From Octopus vulgaris (Eukaryota): DNA of 64,000 bases. Location of the stretch: positions 113,398,001-113,462,000 of the forward strand of contig OX597820.1 in NCBI GenBank assembly GCA_951406725.2. The letters run 5' to 3'. The position numbers and the translations under genes were made by a program. Shown here piece by piece: positions 9,850-61,195 of this stretch (positions are counted from its first letter, which is position 1; each line of letters starts with the position of its first letter). The notes beneath the pieces are model-generated. The model was not told the DNA's origin, did no database searches, and saw only the letters and a program-made list of their open reading frames with translations.

Positions 9850-12290
9850 TCTCATAGGACCTTTGCATTATAATTTTCGATGATGCCTTCGAGTTTATGT
9901 TCGTACTACTTTTTTTCTCAGTCAAGTCCACAATTTTTGCAAAGTGTCCAATGGACAATCCTTACTATGTTGTCATGACGTCTCTTATATTCTTTCTGGG
10001 CGAGTGGTGTACATTGACTGGTAATATGCCATACGTCTTCATCATTTTGCACTTATCTCTTTTTGATGTGTTGTTTATTCTGTATTTGATGTAATTGTTT
10101 CTGAATGCTTGCTCTTGGGCAGCACAGATTAGAGCCTCTGTTTCTGATTTTAAATCACTTTTAGTCATCCATAGCCGTCTTTTTTCTCTGTCTGTCTTAT
10201 CTTCAACATCCCTATGAAATTGTCCATGCATTCCTTTCTTTATCCAACTATTTTCAGTTTCATTCATTCTCAAGTGCTTGTACAGTACTTTATCTTTACA
10301 ATCTTCCATCCTACATAAGTCTGACCTTACTTCCAATAATAGCGGTTTTGTGGCATTTTTACATACCATGCTATGTTGTTTTCTTCTGCTCTAGTCTCCA
10401 CCTTAAATTTTTCTGTCATTTCTTTCTCTATCAGTTTATCGATTTCCAATATCCCCAAGTACTTATAGCCCGTCTCTTCTATTTGCTTCAAAACATTCCC
10501 CGACGGTATCGCTAACCCGTCCATACATTTGATTTTGCCTCACTTCAAGATTAACATACCATACTTCTTCAGTTCTAACTCCATTATATCAGCACTGAAA
10601 GTATACAGCGTATCAACGAGGGAACTGACTTGAGATTCATCTTTATCATAAAGTTTGAAGTCATCCATGAATAACAAATGGTTGACTTTTTGTTGGCGGC
10701 TCTTGAATACATACACAGCCTTTGCTTTCCTCGGAATCAGTGTTAGTGGTATCATGCACAGTCCAAAGGTCCGTGGGGACAGGCAGTCCCCTTGGAAGAT
10801 GCCTCTCCTGATTTCTATTTTCCCTAAAATTCTTCCATAAGTTGTCAGTTCCGTCCTCCACTTCGCCATACTTTTTCCAAGCAATCACTCAACATTCTAT
10901 GCAATACCAAATAGGTTCATACATTCCATAATCCAAGAATGTGAGATAATATCGTATGCCTTACGATAATCGATTCATGACATGGCTAAGTTAGTTTTCT
11001 TCCTCTTGCAGTCTCTAAGTACAGTTTTGTCTACCAGGAGTTGACTCTTGTTACCTCTGCCCTTACGCTTGAACTCCTGCTCAAGTGGAAGGATTCCATG
11101 CTTTTCCAGATGTCCGTACATTGGCTTTGCGACTATTCCAGTCAATAATTTTTACATAAGTGTCAAACAGGATATCGGCCTGTAATTGTCTTCCGTATCG
11201 CCTTTTCCGATGTTTTCCGAGCAAAACACTGTCCCACCCATTGTCAACTACTCTGGTGTTAATTGGTCGGCATTTAACAAGGTGTTGAGTTGCACAGCTA
11301 TTCGTGCATGACATTCACCAAATCTTTTGATCCAGTAGTCTTGAAATCCATCTGGTCCCGGGGCCTTCCATTTGTCCATTTTTTGCTGATTTCCTTTACT
11401 TCCCTAACTGAAATGACTAGCTCTGGCCTGTTGTGGGCAAACTACTGTTTGTTTCAGTTCTTGCAGCCATTCAGCATCCTTCTTTCGCTCTTTGTCTTTG
11501 CTCCAGATGTCACTCCAAAATCTTTCACTTTCAATGTTATCTGGTATCAACTTTTCATCTGTACACCCTGCATTTATTTCTTTGTAGAATCTCTTCTGAT
11601 CTACCCTGAATAACCTATTCTGCTGCTATCCCTTCATTCTTTGGTCGTATCTTACCATCTTTCACTTGGCTCAATTTCCACCGATCAACCTTTTTATGGT
11701 TGCAAATAATGTCTCTATCGTTCTCCTGTAGCCTTGCCTTTATTCTATCGTAGATTGCCTTTTGTTCATCTGTCATGTTACCATTAATTTTATTATCTTC
11801 TTCCAGACCATCTATATGTCTCTCATCGCGCAAGCTAGCACTGTTCCTCTCCTGTGATTTATTAGAGATCTCACCTCTGTTTTCTGCCGTGAGATTACTT
11901 TTATCAGTAAGAACTGTATTTTCATCGTTTCCACTCCTACTTTCCAATATCCGTCTTTTGATAGCTTCGAGCTCTACTTCTGTGAACCAACGATTTTTTT
12001 CTTATTGCTGAAGCTTGATCACGTAATCTCTTTTCTGTGAGTTGAAACAATCCTCTTTCTCTCCATTGTTCATGCATACGTTGTCGGTATCCCCTAATAT
12101 AAGCACCATTTTCGTCTACAGGATTGCTCAAGTAGTAACACACCATGACCACAACATTGACTTGTTTGTCCCATCTACGCCGTGTGTGCTGGATAACGAC
12201 AGGCTGGAGCCGGACCAGTATCTTTGAGCCTGCCGGGTGCAACACTGTCACCATCAAGTTCTTCAGTTTCATTACCACCGTTATTCACTA
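9850..12290 (-). mobile_element. Decayed R4/Dong-clade non-LTR retrotransposon (N-terminus, RT and start of CCHC region)
   Basis: Frameshifted ORF pieces containing RRGIFQGDCLSP, NHLLFMDDFKLY, YKYLGILE, KGMHGQF and KSETEALICAAQEQ. Confidence 0.88.
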
Positions 12291-13060: not shown

Positions 13061-13117
13061 GATTCCTTATACTACATCCAGTTTCGGCAATTTCTGTTGC
13101 CTCATCGGTAAGAATTC
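13061..13117 (-). ncRNA. Type I hammerhead ribozyme (CCGATGA core variant)
   Basis: Minus strand reads gaattctta CCGATGA ggcaa cagaaa ttgcc GAAA ct ggatgt a GTA taaggaatc. Confidence 0.7.
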
Positions 13118-25659: not shown

Positions 25660-25717
25660 TATGCACATATACATAAATACATATATATATATATATATAA
25701 TATGCACATATACATAA

Positions 25718-25770
<53 letters not shown>

Positions 25771-25772
<2 letters not shown>

Positions 25773-27201
25773 GAAACAGTTTCTATCCCAGTCGGTCATC
25801 CCGGTTTTCAAACAGGGAAACAGATCCCTCGCAGTCAACTATCGCCCAATCTCACTCACCTCCCACATCATTAAAGTGTTTGAAAGAGTGTTAAGATCAA
25901 GGATAGCTGACTTCCTGGAGACCCACAAACTCCTAAATGCAAATCAGCATGGCTTTCGCTGTGGCAGGGACTGTCTAACACAGCTCTTACACCACATTGA
26001 AGATGTACTCAAAGCCTTGGGAACAGGTTCGAACTCTGACGTCATATATCTTGACTTCAGTAAAGCGTTCGACAGGGTAGACCATAACATCCTACTCTCA
26101 AAATTGGCAAATGTTGGAATCCGTGGAAAAGTTCTACACTGGATTAAGTATTTCCTGGCGAATAGAACACAACATGTTGTAGTTGATGGAGTCCACTCAA
26201 ACCCAGCAAAAGTCACCAGCGGTGTTCCCCAGGGAACTGTTTTGGGTCCGCTACTCTTCATAATTTACGTAAACGACCTTTCCAGCGTCGTACATTACTG
26301 CAAAGTGAAAATATTTGCTGATGACACTAAGCTCCAGCAAATCGTCAATGAAGAAGCAGACCGAACTCAACTCCAGTCTGATCTATATGCTGTGAGTCAA
26401 TGGGCAGACAGAAACAAAATGCAACTGAATGAGGGAAAATTTGAGCTGATGCATTTTGGAAGAAATTCCTCACTAAAACAACCATACTCTCTCCCTTCAG
26501 GGGAACCGCTCACAGCCTCTAACAATATCAGAGACCTGGGTGTAATTGTTGATGACGATCTCAGTTGGAGTGCACACATCAACAAGAAGGTCGATATAGC
26601 TCGTAGGATGAGTTCCTGGATCTTAAGAACTTTCCGGTCCAGAGAACAAGGTGTCATCATACCACTTTTTTCCTCCTTTGTACGGCCACACCTTGAATAC
26701 TGCTGCCCACTGTGGTCTCCTCACACAAGACAAAACATCTCCAGAATTGAGTCACCCCAGAGGGCACTCACTAAACAAATTGAAGGCATGGCTGCTCTCG
26801 ATTATTGGGATCGCCTTAAAGCCTTGAAACTTTACTCCCTCCAGCGTCGCCGTGAGCGGTACATCATTTGTACGATGTGGAAAATATACCGCCAACTTTG
26901 CCCAAACGACCTAAACATTAACTTCAAGGTTCATCCAAGACTTGGACCACGGGCTATACGTCCCCTGCCCAATTCAAGATCACAACATACATGTACACTG
27001 CAACATAATTTCTTTTCCTCAACAGGCCCTGCCCTATTTAACATTGTCCCGAGGGAGATCAAAGAGGAAAAGGATCCCATCAACTTTAAACAGAGTCTGG
27101 ATAGATTCCTTCAAAGAATACCAGATAAGCCACCCATAATTGGATACAACTCACCCAACAAGAACTCACTACTTGAACAAAACTGGATACAACTCACCTA
27201 A
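25771..27201 (+). CDS. Non-LTR reverse transcriptase, C-terminal part of ORF2 (about 476 aa, no true start codon)
   Basis: [47 protein letters not shown] and RDLGV motifs; the upstream IYIY residues are microsatellite. Confidence 0.93.
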
Positions 27202-28623: not shown

Positions 28624-29366
28624 GATCTATGTACTTGTGATATTTTTCTGTATTTACCCCCAAACCTTCGTGAGCTGTCTAGAGTAAACATTATCTGAGA
28701 GAAATTTTCTTTAAGTAGTAGAAATGCTAAGAAAATTTTTTTTGGCTGCTATTTCTACTAAGTTCAGTATGTGGCAAAGTAATTTATTTTACTAAGCCCT
28801 AATTATATAATGTAATATTTTGAATTCGCCTTAAATGGTCCTTTTACATACTGAACACTTGGTGAAATTGATTAATTAATTAATTTTACCCTCAATTGTT
28901 GATATTATAATTCATATCTCTCGGTCATACTGCCTTGGTTCTCGCGGTTAAAATATAATGTTTGCTAGATAGACCACGTGGGTGGAATGGGGAGTGCAGA
29001 ATTTTACGCCTGCGCATTTTGAATTTGTTGACACTGTTAGTTGGAGTGGTTCATCTGAAGCGACAAGTCGCTGATAGGTAAAGTTCCTTCTTTTTAGTGT
29101 TTCCAAATCCAAATTAAGAAATTTTGAGCTGACGAAAGAAATGCTGATTTTATTTGGCTAATCTTGAAACGTTGACGTACTCAAACGATCTATGTACTTG
29201 TGATATTTTTCTGTATTTACCCCCAAACCTTCGTGAGCTGTCTAGAGTAAACATTATCTGAGAGAAATTTTCTTTAAGTAGTAGAAATGCTAAGAAAATT
29301 TTTTTTGGCTGCTATTTCTACTAAGTTCAGTATGTGGCAAAGTAATTTATTTTACTAAGCCCTAAT

Positions 29367-29418: not shown

Positions 29419-30006
29419 GTATGTATATATATATATATGTATGTATGTATGTATGTATGCATGCATGCATGTATGTATGTATGTATGTATGTATGTAATA
29501 TTAATGATTCGAGAGAGAATCAGGTATTTAAATGGTAGGCTCCAAGTTGGGTCGAATTAACTTGTAGACATCACCTAGTAAATACCAGGTTGAGCTGGAG
29601 TCTAGTTGTGATCCCACTAGATTGTTCTTCGTTTGTTTGAAATGCAACGCATTCTCTGATGAAAACGGATTTTTGTTATGACGCAATGTACTCATTCATC
29701 TATTTAAGAAATACATTAGAAACAGTTGTAATGAACTGACATTTATCCATCGTTTATTTATTTATATATTTATTTGCTATGTGTGTCTGTGTTCTCGCGT
29801 GAAGGCACGTCAGTAAGTAGTTAGAACAAAGGGCTTATAATCGTGAGGTTGTGAGATCGATTCCCGGATCTGGCTGCGTGTTGTGCTCTTGGGCAAGACA
29901 TTATTTCACTTTGCTCCATTTCACTCAGCTGTAGAATTGTGTTGCGACGTCACTGGTGCCAAGCCGTATCGATCTTTGCTTTTCCCTTGGATACCATCGG
30001 TGGCTT

Positions 30007-30862
30007 TGATACCATCAGTTGATACCATCTCTGGTAAGGGCTTTGAAATAAAACCAAGAAGAAGTTCCAGACACCCAGCTGAGTACTTGACAGACACTGA
30101 CTTTGCTGACGACATCGCTCTTATCAGTGATTCTCTCTCCAATGCCCAGTCTCTTTTACAATCTCTTGAACAAGCCTCAAATTGTGTAGGTCTTTACCTT
30201 AATGAGACCAAAACTGAATACATAAACAAGTGCCTGTCCAACAGTGATTGCATCATCCACACTCTCAACAGTGCACCTTTAAATATGGTTTCTGATTATA
30301 AATATCTTGGGTCATACATATCATCATCTGGAAAAGACTTTCTAACTAGAAAGGGTATGGCCTGGTCAGCCTGTAATGACATGCATAAGATCTGGTCATC
30401 AAATCTAAGTAGAGACTTCAAACTTGAAATATTCAAAGCCACAGTCGAACCAATCCTACTATATGGCTCAGAAACCTGGACGTTATCAAAGAAGCTTGAG
30501 AGGCGGTTGGATGGAACCTACACTCGCCTCCTTATGAGAGCTCAAAATCTCTCGTGGAGGCGCCATCCAACTAAAATGCAAATATATGGGAAATTACCAC
30601 CTGTGTCATCTCTTGTGAAGGGTAGGAGAGTCCAGTTTGCTGGACATTGTTGTAGAGCTGAAAAAGAAGTAATTTCTACTCTTCTCCTCTGGAAGCCATC
30701 TACTCGCAACACCAGAGGGCGCACACTCTCCTACCCTGATGTAATCTCCAGGGATACAGGCATCCAGCAACAGGACCTCCGTAATGCTATGATGGACCGT
30801 GAAGTCTGGCGCAACATGGTAAATTCCATTGTCTCGACCACGGTCGAACAATGATGATGATG
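30007..30862 (+). mobile_element. 5'-truncated RTE-clade LINE
   Basis: 11-bp TSD atcggtggctt at 29996-30006 and 30863-30873; (TGA)n tail. Confidence 0.92.
30021..30854 (+). CDS. RTE RT C-terminus, open frame (partial)
   Basis: DTDFADDIAL, GLYLNETKT, YKYLGS, LLYGSETW and FAGHCCR motifs. Confidence 0.9.
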   Translation, partial: DTISGKGFEIKPRRSSRHPAEYLTDTDFADDIALISDSLSNAQSLLQSLEQASNCVGLYLNETKTEYINKCLSNSDCIIHTLNSAPLNMVSDYKYLGSYISSSGKDFLTRKGMAWSACNDMHKIWSSNLSRDFKLEIFKATVEPILLYGSETWTLSKKLERRLDGTYTRLLMRAQNLSWRRHPTKMQIYGKLPPVSSLVKGRRVQFAGHCCRAEKEVISTLLLWKPSTRNTRGRTLSYPDVISRDTGIQQQDLRNAMMDREVWRNMVNSIVSTTVEQ

Positions 30863-32697: not shown

Positions 32698-33555
32698 AGG
32701 TGCAGGAGTGGATGTGTGGTAAGTAGCTTGTTTACCAACCACATGGTTCTGGGTTCAGTCCCACTGCTTGGCACTTTGGGCAAGTGTCTTCTACTGTAGC
32801 CTCGGGCCGACCAAAACCTTGTGAGTGGATTTGGTAGACGGAAACGTATATATGTATATATGTTTGAGTGTCTGTGTTTGTCCCCCTAGCATTGCTTGAC
32901 AACCGATGCTGGTGTGTTTATGTCCCCGTCACTTAGCGGTTCGGCAAAAGAGACCGATAGAATAAGTACTGGGCTTACAAAGAATAACTGACTGAAACAA
33001 GTAAAAGAGTAAAGTATATATATCTATCTATCTATCTATATATATATATATATATATATACGATATAGTGTATATTTAAACACATGAGGAATCCACTTAT
33101 AGGAATTCAACACGCTATAGAACCTAGCTGTTCTTTCTAGCGTGTTAAATTCCTATAAGTGGATTCCTCATGTGTTTAAATATACACTATATCGTATATA
33201 TATATATATATATATAGATAGATAGATAGATAGATAGATATATACTCTTTACTCTTTTACTTGTTTCAGTCAGTTATTCTTTGTAAGCCCAGTACTTATT
33301 CTATCGGTCTCTTTTGCCGAACCGCTAAGTGACGGGGACATAAACACACCTGCATCGGTTGTCAAGCAATGCTAGGGGGACAAACACAGACACTCAAACA
33401 TATATATATATATACATATATACGTTTCCGTCTACCAAATCCACTCACAAGGCTTTGGTCGGCCCGAGGCTATAGTAGAAGACACTTGCCCAAAGTGCCA
33501 CGCAGTGGGACTGAACCCGGAACCATGTGGTTGGTAAGCAAGCTACTTACCACAC
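32698..33555. repeat. Palindrome of about 850 bp with a SINE A copy in each arm
   Basis: About 32713-33117 is inverted against about 33138-33555; both SINE copies carry the same two internal deletions. Confidence 0.92.
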
Positions 33556-40379: not shown

Positions 40380-40900
40380 ATATGTGATCCGTAGTATGGC
40401 CTGTTTCTTCATATTCCTTTCTCTTAGTATCCGGTGGTTGGGCCGGTTTTATAGCTCCATCAAACTGTAGCAAGTGTCTATTGTCTCGTCCTCTTTCTCA
40501 GGCCATTGGGTGACTTCCACTGGTTTCACGATGCTTCTGAGCCAGTAGGGTGGACTTCAGCAGTGGGGGTTCGTATGTCATTTGGAGAAGTGTCGTTCTC
40601 AAGTTTTTCCATCCAGAGCTAGAGTTTGGTTTCTCCCTGAGATATTGTTAGGAACTGACAGAGCTGAGGAAGTTTCTCCTTGTCATTAGGCCAGGTATTG
40701 ACGTCTGTGGACATCGATATTCGACAAGTCACTTTCCGTGTGATATCAGCGAAGACAATGCCAGCGAAGAAGTGCAGGTTGTTTATGTTGGTGGATTTCG
40801 ATCAACCAGTGATCAGGCGGCCAGTGTTGTTCAATACTGGGTCAAGTTTCTTGATCCAGACAGAATATAAAGGGATCAAGGTAGAAGTACTCATGCCACG
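40380..40900 (-). mobile_element. Decayed Ingi/Vingi-like LINE 3' end
   Basis: Manual minus-strand translation gives KKLDPVLNNTGRLITG*SKSTNINNLHFFAGI and later QWKSPNGLR. Confidence 0.5.
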
Positions 40901-41659
40901 CTTCTTATCACGTAATAGTAGATATTACCTGCAAATTCTACCAAACGCTTCGAAGCTGAGTTGCAAAATTTGAAGGATGACAAATCTACTAGGAGTTACT
41001 TGCAGTATATCTGCAATACTCAAAATATACATAGACCCAGTAAAGGAATTAAAATTACACACAAACATACTGAGAGCAATCACAGGTACCATATCTGGCC
41101 AGCGGAAAACAGTAACATCAAAGGGATACAAACTGTTTCATTTGTTTGGATTTCCAGTTTCTTTACAATAATCTAGACAAACGGAAACAATTGTTTTTAA
41201 AAGGAAATTACTTTCAAACACCCAAATGTATTTACGACAAACGATGTTTGAAACAACAAACGTCCTTCCTGTGAAAAAGAAAAAAAAGTAAAGCGAAGGA
41301 TTAAGATAACTACTAAAGTGTAGGCTTGTGGAGGGAGAATAGTAGGAGAAATGAGGAACAAAAGCAAAGACCAGTGTGGTGGAAGGGCTTGGATGCAGTT
41401 AGCTGCATTCATGAGCAGAACTTCGTAGTTGCAATAGGAAAGACAGAGTAAAAAGATGGCGCATCTATGGGATAGAAGTATAAGTCAGTTAAAGAGTGAT
41501 TCTTTGATAATACGAGAGCTTTTTATTTTGGAAACGGATAGTGATAGCAGCAGCAGCAGCAGCAGTAGCAGGAGCAGCACTGTTCCATGTGAGGGAAAAG
41601 TATCCCATAATGCACTTGTTCTCCACGTATTTTATGAAATATGGAATATAATAATGATA

Positions 41660-49357: not shown

Positions 49358-50439
49358 TGTGCGATGCACAGAAATGATGGCATGATAAACAATGTCATTA
49401 TGCTGTAACTAGCAGAAGTTTTTTTCTGCTGCAACATCGAGATGATCCAAACATTTCGAAGAAAATTAGAGAAACTGAAAATTTCTTGAAGCACGTATTT
49501 CGCCTACTCCTGTAATTCAAAGGGCGTCCATTATCATACACAGTTTTATGCTAAAGTTGTCTTAAGATTACATCGAGGCAACAACAGCGGTGGAATAATC
49601 AGTCCTAAGCACTATTATCCCTTCTACTCTGGGTATAAGGCTTGAGATTTTAGGGGAGAAAGTAAGTTGATTTCATCGACCCCAGTGCTGAACAAGAACT
49701 TATTTCATCGAACCCGAAAGGATGAATGGCAAAGTCGACTTCGGCGGAATTTCAACTCAAAAGTCACACCATATAATACAACGAGTATTTTCTTTGTTCA
49801 AACAACTGGATTTTTCATTCGTCAAAAGTAATACTCTATGTTCAGCATAGGGATAAAATTATGGTTAGGGGATAGGGTGCAATTAGTAATATTTACTGAA
49901 TTTTTTACTTCGAAAAAAAAAAAATTTTTTACAAATGTTCACTGCCTTATATGATCTATATCAGCTAAGAAAATGGCTTCTAAATGCATTAAAACCGCTA
50001 TAACATTCAAAGCTCTATTTCAGAAAATTATCTTCGCTTTCTTTGGGTATATAAAGACAAATTTGGCCGGAGGAAATTGAGTAAGACAAATAAGTTAAAT
50101 TTGCCCCTTCAGTACTCCCGAATTACATTTGAGGAAAGGCTCTTACACATCAATACCCATCTTTAGACATTAGAAAGACAGAAATGCAACAAAAATTTAA
50201 AATATCTAGGTCAACGGAAAGATGAAAATGGTACATGATATAAAATGAACGAAACTTGGCTAAATCGAAAAACACAACAAAATATTCTCTGTAGTTTCTT
50301 GACGATCTGCTGGAGTGGTTTTCTTCATGAGATATTTACATTTTTTTTTACCAACGGCTATAATAGATCCTCTCGCGGACGAGGGCATGTCCTGACCTTT
50401 CCGCTATTCTTTGGGCTTCATATGAATCCACTGGTGTGA

Positions 50440-51320
50440 ACAGGAAGATGTCCAAGTACTGTTAGATCATGTGAACTCAAGAAAGCCATCCATACAGTTC
50501 ACAAAGGAAAAAGGAAAAAACAATCAACTAGCACTCCTGGATGTATTGATAACACGCACCAAGTATGGATTCAGGACATCTGTATACTGCAAGCCAACCT
50601 TCACTGGACGATACCTCAACTTCAACTCCCACCATCCATACAGTGTAAAGAGAGGGATTACTCAGTGCCTAAAACATCGAGCAAAGTAACGATCCTGATA
50701 CACAACACGAAGAAATGATCAAGCTAAGTAACAATCTATTAAGCAACACTTACCCCCAAAACATACTATCCACTCCAATTTATAAAGAGAAGGGAGGATG
50801 AAACCCATAAACTGACCACAGTCTGTCTACTCTATGTGAAAGGCCTCTCCGAAAAGATACGAAAGATATACGGCTCATATGACATCAGGACAGAATTCAA
50901 GAGTAATACAACTCTTCTCAAATATCTCCTTCGAGTAAAACCACCACTAGAAGAGAATCTGACCCAAAACTGCATGTACTCAATCCCATGCAGCTGTGGT
51001 GGGTTATACAAAGGCGAAACATGCCGCCCCCTCAAAATAAGGGTAGAGGAACATCGCAAAGTTGTGACACAGGGAGATATTGAAAAATCGGGTATAGCTG
51101 ATCATGTATGGAAAAATGGAGACCACCCCCTGTGGGATGAAGTTAAAATAACAGAGAATACCACTGGAAAATACGAAAACTAAGAGAGGCAGTACATATG
51201 CTAGGACATAATAACCTCCTAAGCTGACCGAGTGCAGATATGAGTAGAATACGGGAACCGGCATTAAGGAAGGATAGGAAAATATTAGATTAAGAAGGCC
51301 TGAAATTCACTCCATAATAG
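50440..51320 (+). mobile_element. Penelope-like element remnant (RT thumb and GIY-YIG)
   Basis: IQFTKE..LALLDVLITR..VYCKPT..YLNFNSHHP and MYSIPCSCGGLYKGETCRPLKIRVEEH. Confidence 0.9.
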
Positions 51321-51325
51321 CCTAC

Positions 51326-51400
51326 GAGCTTATGGCGTAGTGATTAAGAGCGCGGGCTACTAACCCCAAGATTCTGAGTTCGATTCCAGGCAGTAACCTG
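51326..51400 (+). promoter_or_regulatory. tRNA-like module with Pol III A and B boxes directly after the PLE ORF
   Basis: A box tggcgtagtga; anticodon-like arm gggctactaaccc; B box gagttcgattcc. Confidence 0.75.
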
Positions 51401-51676
51401 AATAATAATAATTTAAGACAAACATAACTTTCGTTTTTTTTTTAGACATTCACTAGTACAACACTAAATACAAAACCAAATATATGGCACACTAGGAATA
51501 ACAACAATACGAACTTCCAACCTGTTGCCTCTTGACGTCTCTGGGCGAGACTCTGGAGCCAACTTGTACAAATATAAAGCAAAAGTCAAACATAGAATAA
51601 TAATAATAATAATAACAACAACAACAACATCGGAAAAATACCTTAGGAATGAGAACCCGGGTTCGAAATTCCCCCA

Positions 51677-51722
51677 GGATACCCGATGAAGGCTGGAGAG
51701 TACATCAGTCGAAATGTGTGCT
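51677..51722 (+). ncRNA. Decayed minimal HHR
   Basis: ggatac CCGATGA a ggctg gagagtacat cagtc GAAA tgtgtgct. Confidence 0.55.
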
Positions 51723-52797
51723 AACAACAAGCAAGATGAGGACAAATATCCGTCAAATGTAAATAATGTACATAATTCCTCATCTCTCAAATATAGAAAT
51801 GGTATTGTCAGTAGCTTTATTTTGGGGTGTTTGATACATTAATATAATTTCTACTGTTTCTGCTACTGGAACATCAATGAAAAGACTTTCTACATCTAGG
51901 TTGGAGATGGTATCTATTTCATTTCTTTCTTCTGAAATGTTTGGACATTTTTCTGATAACCTTATACTGTATTCATCTGGTATGTATTTTTGATAATCTT
52001 ATCATTATAACGGTTTTATGCGTTGGTGTATTTATTTGGGATGTTGTAAGTTGGGCTGTGAAATGAAAGTGATCCCACTGAGCACGAGTTTGTCTCCTGA
52101 AGATTGAGCCCAAAGAACTTCTGACAAAACTAAATTCCTTATCTTTAATTCGGTTTCAATGCCAACTCTTACTTAGGATCAGGCATTTTGAGTTTTGACC
52201 AAGAGAGTACCAAAATGAATACAACAGCTGAAATGGACTTTCTCCGAAAGTCGCTGTCGTACAGTTACTTGATAGTGTGTTTAGTTTGGAGATCAGGGAG
52301 CTATGGATGTGATAGCTATCAGCGAGACAAGGATTTCCAGAATGTGCCTTGGTGCGCATTTTTGATGACCTTGAGAACTACGTATCTCTTAACCGACCTC
52401 GAGCCAAAGTACTGAATAACTATAAATTTCCAGTACTGTACCAATTTTAAAATTGTGATGGGTTGGCAAAATTCCTTATAGCATAAGGCAGAATAGATTC
52501 TATTAGTTTAACGTTCTAAGTTCAAATCGGCCGAGCTTGCTTTTCACCCTTCTACGGTCGCTGAAATAAGGTACCATTATCTGACAAGATATACTTTATT
52601 TGGCAGTTTATTCTCGTTTGATCCCTTACCTATTCACCACTTTCTGACTTTGTTGAAAAGGATTATTTAGAATATTGTCGTTAAACATCTGCGAAACGTT
52701 GTTTTTCATTGTAGAATTAACGTTAATACGAATTGTTTTATGATGTCTGCTGCAAGAATGAAATCATCCTCTCCATTCCTCCTTTCTTTCTATATGC

Positions 52798-57629: not shown

Positions 57630-58080
57630 ATTCGGTTGTAAGAGCTTGACACCAAAGCCTCATATACGATCCCTTCAACCTCGCATCCTCGCCTCCCAGA
57701 CAGACCCTTAAGTTGTGTCTATTGAACAAATGCCTGTACCTGTGTGTCTGCGTGAAGCGTTTGTCTACTAACCTTAGGAGTATCCTTACCACACAAGTTT
57801 TAACGTTGAGGGTGAAGAGTGGAGTAAGGCAATCGACCTTCCAGTGGTGTCTCCTTTTGCGGGTACTAGGGCCCGGCAAATAGGAGATGCCTTCCTTAAA
57901 CTCATTGGCTCCAGTGCTTCGGTGTAATAGGGAGCCACGGCGTCGAAAAGTTTTTGATACGAAGACAGTTTCGAGATCTGGTTGCTGAGACCCTTCACTG
58001 AGTTCCTGAACACGATAGGTGGGTGGCAGGAAGCTGTGTTGATGTAGGGCAGCTTCTCGTTTGGGTTGCGATAGGGCTCC
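57630..58080 (-). mobile_element. Penelope-like RT C-terminal remnant
   Basis: PYRNPNEKLPYINTASCHPP, APYYTEAL and FTLNVKT motifs. Confidence 0.7.
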
Positions 58081-58340
58081 AGTTTGAAGAGTGGTTATAT
58101 GTTTGCGGTCGTCTATAAGGCTAACTGCTTTATGGATGCAAAGCTATTAATCACTCACTCTAATACCAGCCATATAATTGACCTCTCAGTCACTAGTTAA
58201 GTGCTTGCCCGTGGCTAAAAGTTGTTTTGACTCTTATTTCATGCAATGCTAATGCTGATTTGCGCCCTTAGTCACACTTTAGGGACGTTTGTACTCATGC
58301 CTTTTTGGTTTTGAATTGCGGATAGCCACCTTAACAGTTC

Positions 58341-60998: not shown

Positions 60999-61195
60999 GT
61001 GTGAAGGCGTGTGGCTCAGTGGTTAGGGTATTCGGTTCACGATCGTAAGGTCATGAGTTCAATTCCCGGCGACGCCTTTTGTCCTTGAGCAAGATACTTT
61101 ATTTCACATTACTCCAGTACACTCAGCTGGCAAAAATGAGTAGTACCTGCATTTCAAAAGGCCAGCCTTGTTACAATCTGTGTCGTGCTGAATCA
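60999..61195 (+). mobile_element. SINE family D-like
   Basis: A box tggctcagtgg, B box gagttcaattcc, then tccttgagcaagatact. Confidence 0.8.

Follow-up and report, generated by a model that had tools for sequence, protein, structure and literature searches.

A decayed Penelope-like element with a tRNA-derived head and a hammerhead in its terminal repeat, and its probable SINE-like short form

The element at positions 50342–51803 of the 64,000-nt stretch of DNA analysed here (the window) is probably a decayed, 5′-truncated Penelope-like element (PLE) of the Penelope/Poseidon type. Its pseudo-LTR (pLTR) would comprise a tRNA-derived head with A and B boxes, an AAT tract, a minimal hammerhead ribozyme (HHR), and a tail, and this terminal module of ~300 nt would also multiply alone, in SINE-like fashion, as a predicted Pol III transcript copied by the PLE reverse transcriptase. 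We lean toward the stronger statement that one module serves both as the pLTR of an autonomous PLE, with a tRNA-type Pol III promoter at the promoter position, and as a tRNA-headed, hammerhead-bearing SINE in tens of thousands of copies, with the PLE as its partner. The arrangement of PLE, head, and HHR is family-wide and is no local accident; what appears new is a single family that joins a PLE pLTR and a tRNA-headed SINE-like element. The present copy is likely dead, and was likely split afterwards by another repeat.

The window is AT-rich, of animal type, and contains many microsatellites and retroelement remnants. A prior sequence-only reading had proposed the order PLE ORF, tRNA-like module, HHR, and this order is confirmed by tblastn blocks, A and B boxes, and the HHR core. 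That reading had overlooked an inverted N-terminal ORF piece (50342–50437) and a 183-bp repeat (51413–51595); the AAT tract that it reported is present, but is actually two tracts parted by this foreign repeat. The features are as follows, by window coordinates and strand.

50342–50437, minus strand: inverted piece of the N-terminal region of the PLE ORF (tblastn: relative P0047 residues 73–104, 59%, E 1.2e-6; relative P0036 residues 35–66, 62%, E 4.6e-7)
50441–51278, plus strand: decayed, 5′-truncated PLE ORF, comprising the C-terminal part of the reverse transcriptase (RT), thumb/linker, and C-terminal GIY-YIG-type endonuclease (tblastn blocks 50426–51278)
51279–51325, plus strand: short 3′ spacer common to other ORF-bearing copies (family letter at 51292–51319 in 94–105 contigs per DNA run)
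51326–51400, plus strand: tRNA-derived head, decayed cloverleaf (box A 51333–51343, box B 51378–51386; depth step; loose 5′ ends at 51331)
51401–51412, plus strand: AAT tract, first part (from the sequence)
51413–51595, plus strand: unrelated 183-bp repeat inserted in the AAT tract of the present copy (depth uncoupled from the head; AAT direct repeat on both sides)
51596–51628, plus strand: AAT/AAC tract, second part (from the sequence)
51649–51651, plus strand: ATG, predicted PLE ORF start in tandem copies (its frame would run into that of the tail where a copy has an extra base after 51716)
51677–51723, plus strand: decayed minimal type I hammerhead (cleavage predicted at 51717/51718)
51724–51803, plus strand: pLTR end and optional tail, probably the first ORF codons (3′ ends at ~51770–51776 and ~51803)

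The family-wide evidence comes from reads and contigs with 80% likeness to the window in three DNA runs (X1, X5, and X9) and one raw, unstranded RNA run from organism E, together 4 of the 24 runs listed, and representing three related organisms (A, B, and E). Listed were 40 of the 355 variant rows, 15 of the 258 joints, 24 of the 2910 loose ends, and 24 of the 105,722 pieces. Positions 51587–51638 were omitted from the comparison, and 55 RNA joints located there were excluded.

The coding remnant and its junction to the head

Alignment of full-length relatives of 768 and 806 aa by tblastn yields four colinear plus-strand blocks over 50426–51278 (E 1e-93 to 6e-97), and the ORF copy is therefore 5′-truncated and broken by three frame changes and by stops. 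The match ends ~50 nt upstream of the tRNA-like head. At the other end, the inverted N-terminal piece adjoins the 5′ truncation point, and an inverted piece at a 5′ truncation is described as a PLE hallmark (PMC8557442). Pieces from other copies that begin at 50441 account for 5 of the 24 pieces listed among 105,722.

The ORF fits an EN+ PLE of the Penelope/Poseidon clade. In particular, 33 of 109 candidates are relatives of a 131-aa ORF piece, the best of them 71% identical, and RVT_1 is present in all four relatives scanned, above the cut-off in two. The columns Y-x-I-P-C-S-C, Y-x-G-x-T, R, H, and H are invariant in all six alignment rows; we take these columns to be the GIY-YIG and CCHH motifs, and Pfam returned no GIY-YIG match on the window pieces. 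A Cys cluster in the RT–endonuclease linker is absent from the alignment of the window piece and five relatives, and on this ground the ORF fits Penelope/Poseidon, since the lack of an extra zinc finger in this linker is described as separating Penelope/Poseidon from Neptune/Nematis (PMC8557442). No PLE relatives were found in viral contigs.

Other coding remnants lie elsewhere in the window: RVT_1 remnants of other retroelements at 25660–27198, 29847–30851, and 10543–10884, and an open frame at 57789–58094 on the minus strand without a Pfam match, which presumably resembles the thumb region of another PLE clade. Among the PLE ORF relatives, P0054 has an N-terminus that starts unlike those of its cluster-mates and then joins the PLE ORF; it may read from an inverted hammerhead-bearing end.

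The head contains box A and box B at tRNA spacing, a pairing found twice in the window versus 0.035 times per shuffle (at least one pair in 6 of 200 shuffles), and we assume that it resembles an arginine tRNA. ARAGORN reported no tRNA genes and did not recognise the head, Rfam gave seven matches at E ≤ 10, none of them a tRNA or a hammerhead, and folding energies are no better than those of shuffles (z ~ −0.3). A weak hairpin or palindrome at 51312–51335 (−5.6 kcal/mol), present here and in free copies, is centred just before the tRNA +1. The best candidate for a target-site duplication (TSD) around the head is a trivial 6-bp ATAATA, expected from any AAT tract, and the view that the tRNA module lacks an evident TSD is thus borne out. 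Exact matches to a 19-mer of the head were absent from GTDB and viral contigs, and plasmid sequences gave no match. Other tRNA-like SINE heads, at 2082–2200 and 61000–61100, differ in sequence from this head.

The head is integral to the PLE on the ORF side, because the ORF-to-head junction recurs in other copies that are ~84% alike. Specifically, two of the 24 pieces listed are contigs that bridge ORF and head (X1, 51035–51365; X5, 51130–51372; none listed for X9), and their identity of 84% means that they derive from other copies, not from the present locus. At 51319, seven bases short of the head, 94–105 contigs per DNA run have the family letter, RNA depth remains level from the ORF end into the spacer (664, 706, 623, 665, and 570 from 51225 to 51319), and none of the 24 loose ends listed of 2910 leaves the spacer. 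The bridging of diverged copies and the unbroken RNA depth from ORF end to head uphold, on the ORF side, the possibility raised in the earlier reading that the head belongs to the element: the head, rather than being absent from other copies of this PLE, follows the ORF in diverged copies.

Hammerhead and tail

The HHR has a core with one C for U, a helix II with five of five pairs behind one bulged base, a helix I of three contiguous pairs, and a helix III reduced to almost none; a minimal hammerhead form is described for PLEs (PMC4209133). A descriptor of core and helix II finds 7 sites in the window versus 0.14 per shuffle (100 shuffles), and Rfam does not recognise the HHR at 51677–51723. 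The HHR is more intact in other copies: 200–220 contigs per run and 1598 reads break at 51717, and the consensus of the sequences that break there shows a perfect helix II and a conserved core end. An extra T after 51716 is present in 679 of 1477 RNA reads and at only ~4–5% of depth in DNA contigs, the low DNA depth arising because most alignments break there. Five contigs, among the 15 joints listed of 258, step back 46 nt to exactly 51718, a position that coincides, suggestively only, with the predicted cut site. HHR cleavage is described as dispensable in vitro (PMC11167929).

Further hammerhead-like cores are present in the window, as inverted pairs at 13108(−)/13306(+) and 35114(−)/35263(+), probably fold-back ends of other PLE families, and singly at 29129, 54292, and 22933. 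An HDV-like ribozyme match to the Rfam CPEB3 model at 40860–40942 (33.3 bits, gathering threshold 35, E 5e-5) is possibly the 5′ end of a LINE, and a long near-perfect palindrome between TA-rich ends at 33055–33200 may be a fold-back insertion.

HHR and tail are likely the pLTR of the present PLE, because they end at either of two 3′ points separated by ~30 nt, are fused in inverted orientation to truncated ORFs, and may overlap the ORF start. In particular, loose ends lie behind 51769, 51770, 51776, and 51798, forming clusters at 51769–51776 and at 51798 plus ~5 shared letters, ~30 nt apart, and these 3′ ends, at positions typical of PLEs, pass directly into heterogeneous flanks; they match an optional tail of ~30–40 nt that has been attributed to two sites within the ORF start at which RT begins (PMC11167929). 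Opposite-strand joints between tail and truncated ORF occur in other copies at 51067/51722 and 51151/51735, in one or two contigs each.

HHR and tail may overlap the PLE ORF start, as the HHR is described to overlap the start codon in PAc (PMC11167929). Specifically, the tail frame of extra-T copies ends in NSSSLKYR, and residues 14–21 of P0047 read NTSSQKYR, a weak match to one relative with six of eight residues identical (p = 0.026 versus the first 40 residues, best of six frames; p = 0.19 versus the whole protein). A search for further PLE N-termini gave 0 of 218 candidates, and spurious ORFs read across tail or head gave 0 of 25 candidates in one search and no matches in another. A 20-mer of the tail had no exact matches in viral and GTDB contigs and one in metagenomes; the latter falls within what looks like bacterial coding sequence, shows no further likeness, and was set aside as chance.

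The free short form and its probable mode of copying

In other copies the tract runs on as AAT past 51412, in all four runs. The 183-bp repeat present here has a depth relative to the head of 0.38, 0.37, and 0.03 in the three DNA runs and 0.02 in the RNA run, is flanked by a 13–14 bp AAT direct repeat with one mismatch, and is best read as a later insertion. By analogy it is likely the 3′ end of a microsatellite-targeting (TAA) LINE: Dong elements are described to target (TAA)n in molluscs (PMC7998251), and Dong-R4 to have been recently active in Octopus vulgaris (PMC13282606). We rejected the idea that head and middle piece together make up a LINE-tailed SINE, since their depths are uncoupled. 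The inserted repeat contains a T10 run at 51434, and the present copy is therefore unable to yield a head-to-HHR Pol III RNA.

A free unit of ~300 nt, comprising tRNA head, AAT tract, hammerhead, and tail, likely exists, because depth steps up sharply at the head, the upstream flanks are unrelated, and the ratio of tail to head depth is near 2.1 in all four runs; the head–tail link rests on this indirect evidence and a few joints. Specifically, depth at the 5′ end of the head rises to 14–17 times that at 51292, and the head stands at 11–15 times, and the tail at 23–32 times, the ORF median. Scaled to the single-locus flank, this gives, as orders of magnitude, 10^4 for heads and tails and 10^3 for ORF pieces, summed depth being no true copy number. 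In the DNA runs 229, 280, and 215 contigs, and in the RNA run 391 reads, leave the window at 51331 and enter heterogeneous AT-rich flanks, sharing only ~11–15 letters, a short palindrome around the tRNA +1. At least ~6 letters upstream from the predicted +1 are common to the free copies; a clean Pol III start would account for these only with fold-back.

The tail/head depth ratio is 2.13, 2.15, 2.11, and 2.00 in the four runs, while the insert ratio varies from 0.38 to 0.02; the three sampled species are closely related, and constant ratios may come from shared history. Direct joints from 51399 to 51692 occur in one contig each in X1 and X5, with a short side of only 23 letters, and an opposite-strand joint of head start to inverted tail (51331/51725) occurs in X5, X9, and two RNA reads. 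None of the 24 pieces listed of 105,722 spans head to HHR, as contigs break at the AAT tract, and DNA depth over 51620–51729 is only 0.15–0.35 of that of the head, which we tentatively ascribe to alignment breaks.

The free unit works like a SINE, and we do not class it as a canonical tRNA-derived SINE. In all four runs it is short, non-coding, and high-copy, with a defined 5′ end, and it has a tRNA head with box A and box B; it has no LINE-derived or poly(A)/simple-repeat tail accompanied by a TSD, and no TSD above 5–6 bp surrounds the unit in the present copy. Of retrozyme-type tandem monomers the 64-kb window holds a single unit. The proposal of a SINE-like form is supported by the sharp depth step and the heterogeneous flanks at the 5′ end of the head, and fails as regards the present copy, whose head-to-HHR Pol III RNA is barred by the T10 run.

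The RNA run, of which ~6% was read, gave 12,360 matching reads, unstranded, 74% of which continue into other sequence. These reads are copies inside longer transcripts, reflecting read-through rather than a discrete Pol III start; a start peak at the head is not among the features listed for this unstranded cDNA of a related species.

The embedding of most RNA reads in longer transcripts also suits the reading that the head is integral to the pLTR and that the abundant short copies are 5′-truncated PLE insertions, arising where the hairpin and the tRNA-like fold in a long Pol II transcript halt the RT, with no Pol III SINE. PLEs are described as heavily 5′-truncated (PMC8557442), depth rises toward the 3′ end, and the free copies begin inside the hairpin at 51312–51335. 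We nevertheless consider this explanation unlikely, if worth keeping in view: the 14–17-fold step occurs at one place, coincides with the tRNA +1 and intact A and B boxes, and is far sharper than the gradient across the ORF.

The loose ends behind 51412, which show only AAT runs (agreement 0.62–0.65), raise another reading, in which head and AAT run form a regular tRNA SINE in its own right, tailed by a microsatellite; one such copy would have been captured long ago in the UTR of an ancestral PLE, and most free heads would be unrelated to the HHR tail. The trivial ATAATA repeat flanks the head, and tRNA SINEs are described as abundant in octopus genomes (PMC8967140). This reading is improbable, given that the tail/head depth is constant in all four runs and that head-to-HHR joints occur in both direct and inverted form.

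For a chance co-occurrence here of a fragment of a PLE, a SINE, the end of a LINE, and an independent HHR repeat, one could cite the dense repeats of the window, the lack of a second copy of any part (self-BLAST and nhmmer find none of head, insert, or tail in the 64 kb), and the 183-bp middle piece, which is indeed foreign. This explanation is very improbable: bridging contigs and continuous RNA depth largely refute it, the ORF–head junction recurs in diverged copies and across species, and ORF and tail are joined in other copies.

On the preferred reading, that of a pLTR that doubles as a SINE-like unit, a tRNA-derived module would have become part of the pLTR of a Poseidon-type PLE, and each pLTR would be a potential Pol III unit carrying the region where RT binds and starts. 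The predicted Pol III RNA would start at the head and, in uninterrupted copies, meet no T4 run before the tail. T4 runs are absent from head and tail; they are absent also from the 900-nt ORF plus spacer, where an estimated ~1.2 are expected, a deficit that is not significant and that we do not count toward Pol III transcription of the ORF. The PLE protein would bind the tail stretch, and reverse transcription would start from either of two sites. The resulting copies would lack poly(A) and a clear TSD, and many would have an inverted piece 5′-terminally; trans copying of the short RNAs would far outnumber copying of the full element. In a tandem, the head would be situated within the 5′ UTR of the ORF that follows, ~60–70 nt before the ATG; PLE promoters have been reported in the 5′ UTR. 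That the A and B boxes should also serve as promoter for the autonomous element's coding RNA strikes us as distinctly unlikely.

Comparison with known systems

By definition SINEs are parasites of LINEs, and the case for mobilisation by PLEs of short elements with a hammerhead has relied mostly on pLTR similarity and co-occurrence. If the preferred reading is true, the same tRNA head, hammerhead, and RT-start tail in an autonomous and a short form would constitute a direct partner pair, would offer a model for the orphan Sm-alpha SINEs, and would suggest that PLE derivatives have been misfiled among the unclassified SINEs of this host group. The partnership had been called unusual. This holds in part: Pol III hammerhead SINE-like elements (Sm-alpha) and PLE-derived non-autonomous elements are in print, but no ORF-bearing PLE was found described as having a tRNA promoter in its pLTR in the available portions of the literature; Repbase, Dfam, or SINEBase may already list the family.

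The element resembles Penelope/Poseidon EN+ PLEs with pLTR hammerheads (PMC4209133; PAc, PMC11167929), as far as these are described, in having RT followed by a GIY-YIG-type domain, no Cys motif in the linker, a 5′ truncation with an inverted piece, a minimal type I HHR, and an optional tail of ~30 nt. Overlap of HHR and ORF start is a feature of PAc (PMC11167929) and may occur in the present family. Unlike Penelope/Poseidon PLEs as described, the present pLTR contains a tRNA-derived A/B-box head and an AAT tract; in the available text, the word tRNA occurs 0 times in PMC4209133 and once, in an unrelated context, in PMC8557442.

Sm-alpha and Sj-alpha of schistosomes are described as SINE-like elements, tens of thousands of copies strong, in which a hammerhead follows a tRNA-related Pol III promoter (PMC6765202, PMC2770079). 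Compared by description, the order of Pol III-type promoter and hammerhead is the same. Sm-alpha and Sj-alpha are often tandem and self-cleave in vitro, and the excerpts name no autonomous partner that shares their sequence; unlike Sm-alpha, the present module is the physical end repeat of an ORF-bearing PLE, and its HHR is of the minimal type.

The short non-coding unit related to a PLE pLTR recalls two further groups, as these are described: animal non-LTR retrozymes, proposed as PLE derivatives or PLE-mobilised short non-coding elements (PMC7229834, PMC7761336, bioRxiv 10.64898/2026.07.22.740005), and the non-autonomous Chlamys elements, which are short, non-coding, and related to PLE pLTRs (PMC8557442). 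Non-LTR retrozymes form tandem arrays and circular RNAs, with no tRNA-type promoter described in the excerpts, whereas the present unit appears to be dispersed and has a tRNA head at its start.

Among octopus tRNA SINEs, OK, OR1, and OR2 were reportedly described by Ohshima and Okada in 1994 as having tRNA-derived heads. OR1 and OR2, set beside the present unit by description only, are cited as CORE-SINEs (PMC4758252, PMC4824008); nothing resembling a CORE body is apparent in the present unit. The available portions of octopus SINE surveys mention tRNA-CORE and tRNA-Deu families and not the present family (PMC4758252, PMC4824008, PMC8967140).

Finally, Helenus, Ajax, and Cassandra (TRIMp3) are described as having a small-RNA-derived Pol III promoter inside the terminal repeat, proposed to have arisen via SINE insertion, with Helenus carrying tRNA-derived sequence in the LTRs of non-autonomous LTR elements (PMC10886601). 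These are non-autonomous LTR elements with a PBS, a PPT, and TSDs, for which no long LTR shared with an autonomous partner is expected in the text available (PMC10886601); unlike them, the present ORF-bearing element itself carries the Pol III-type module.
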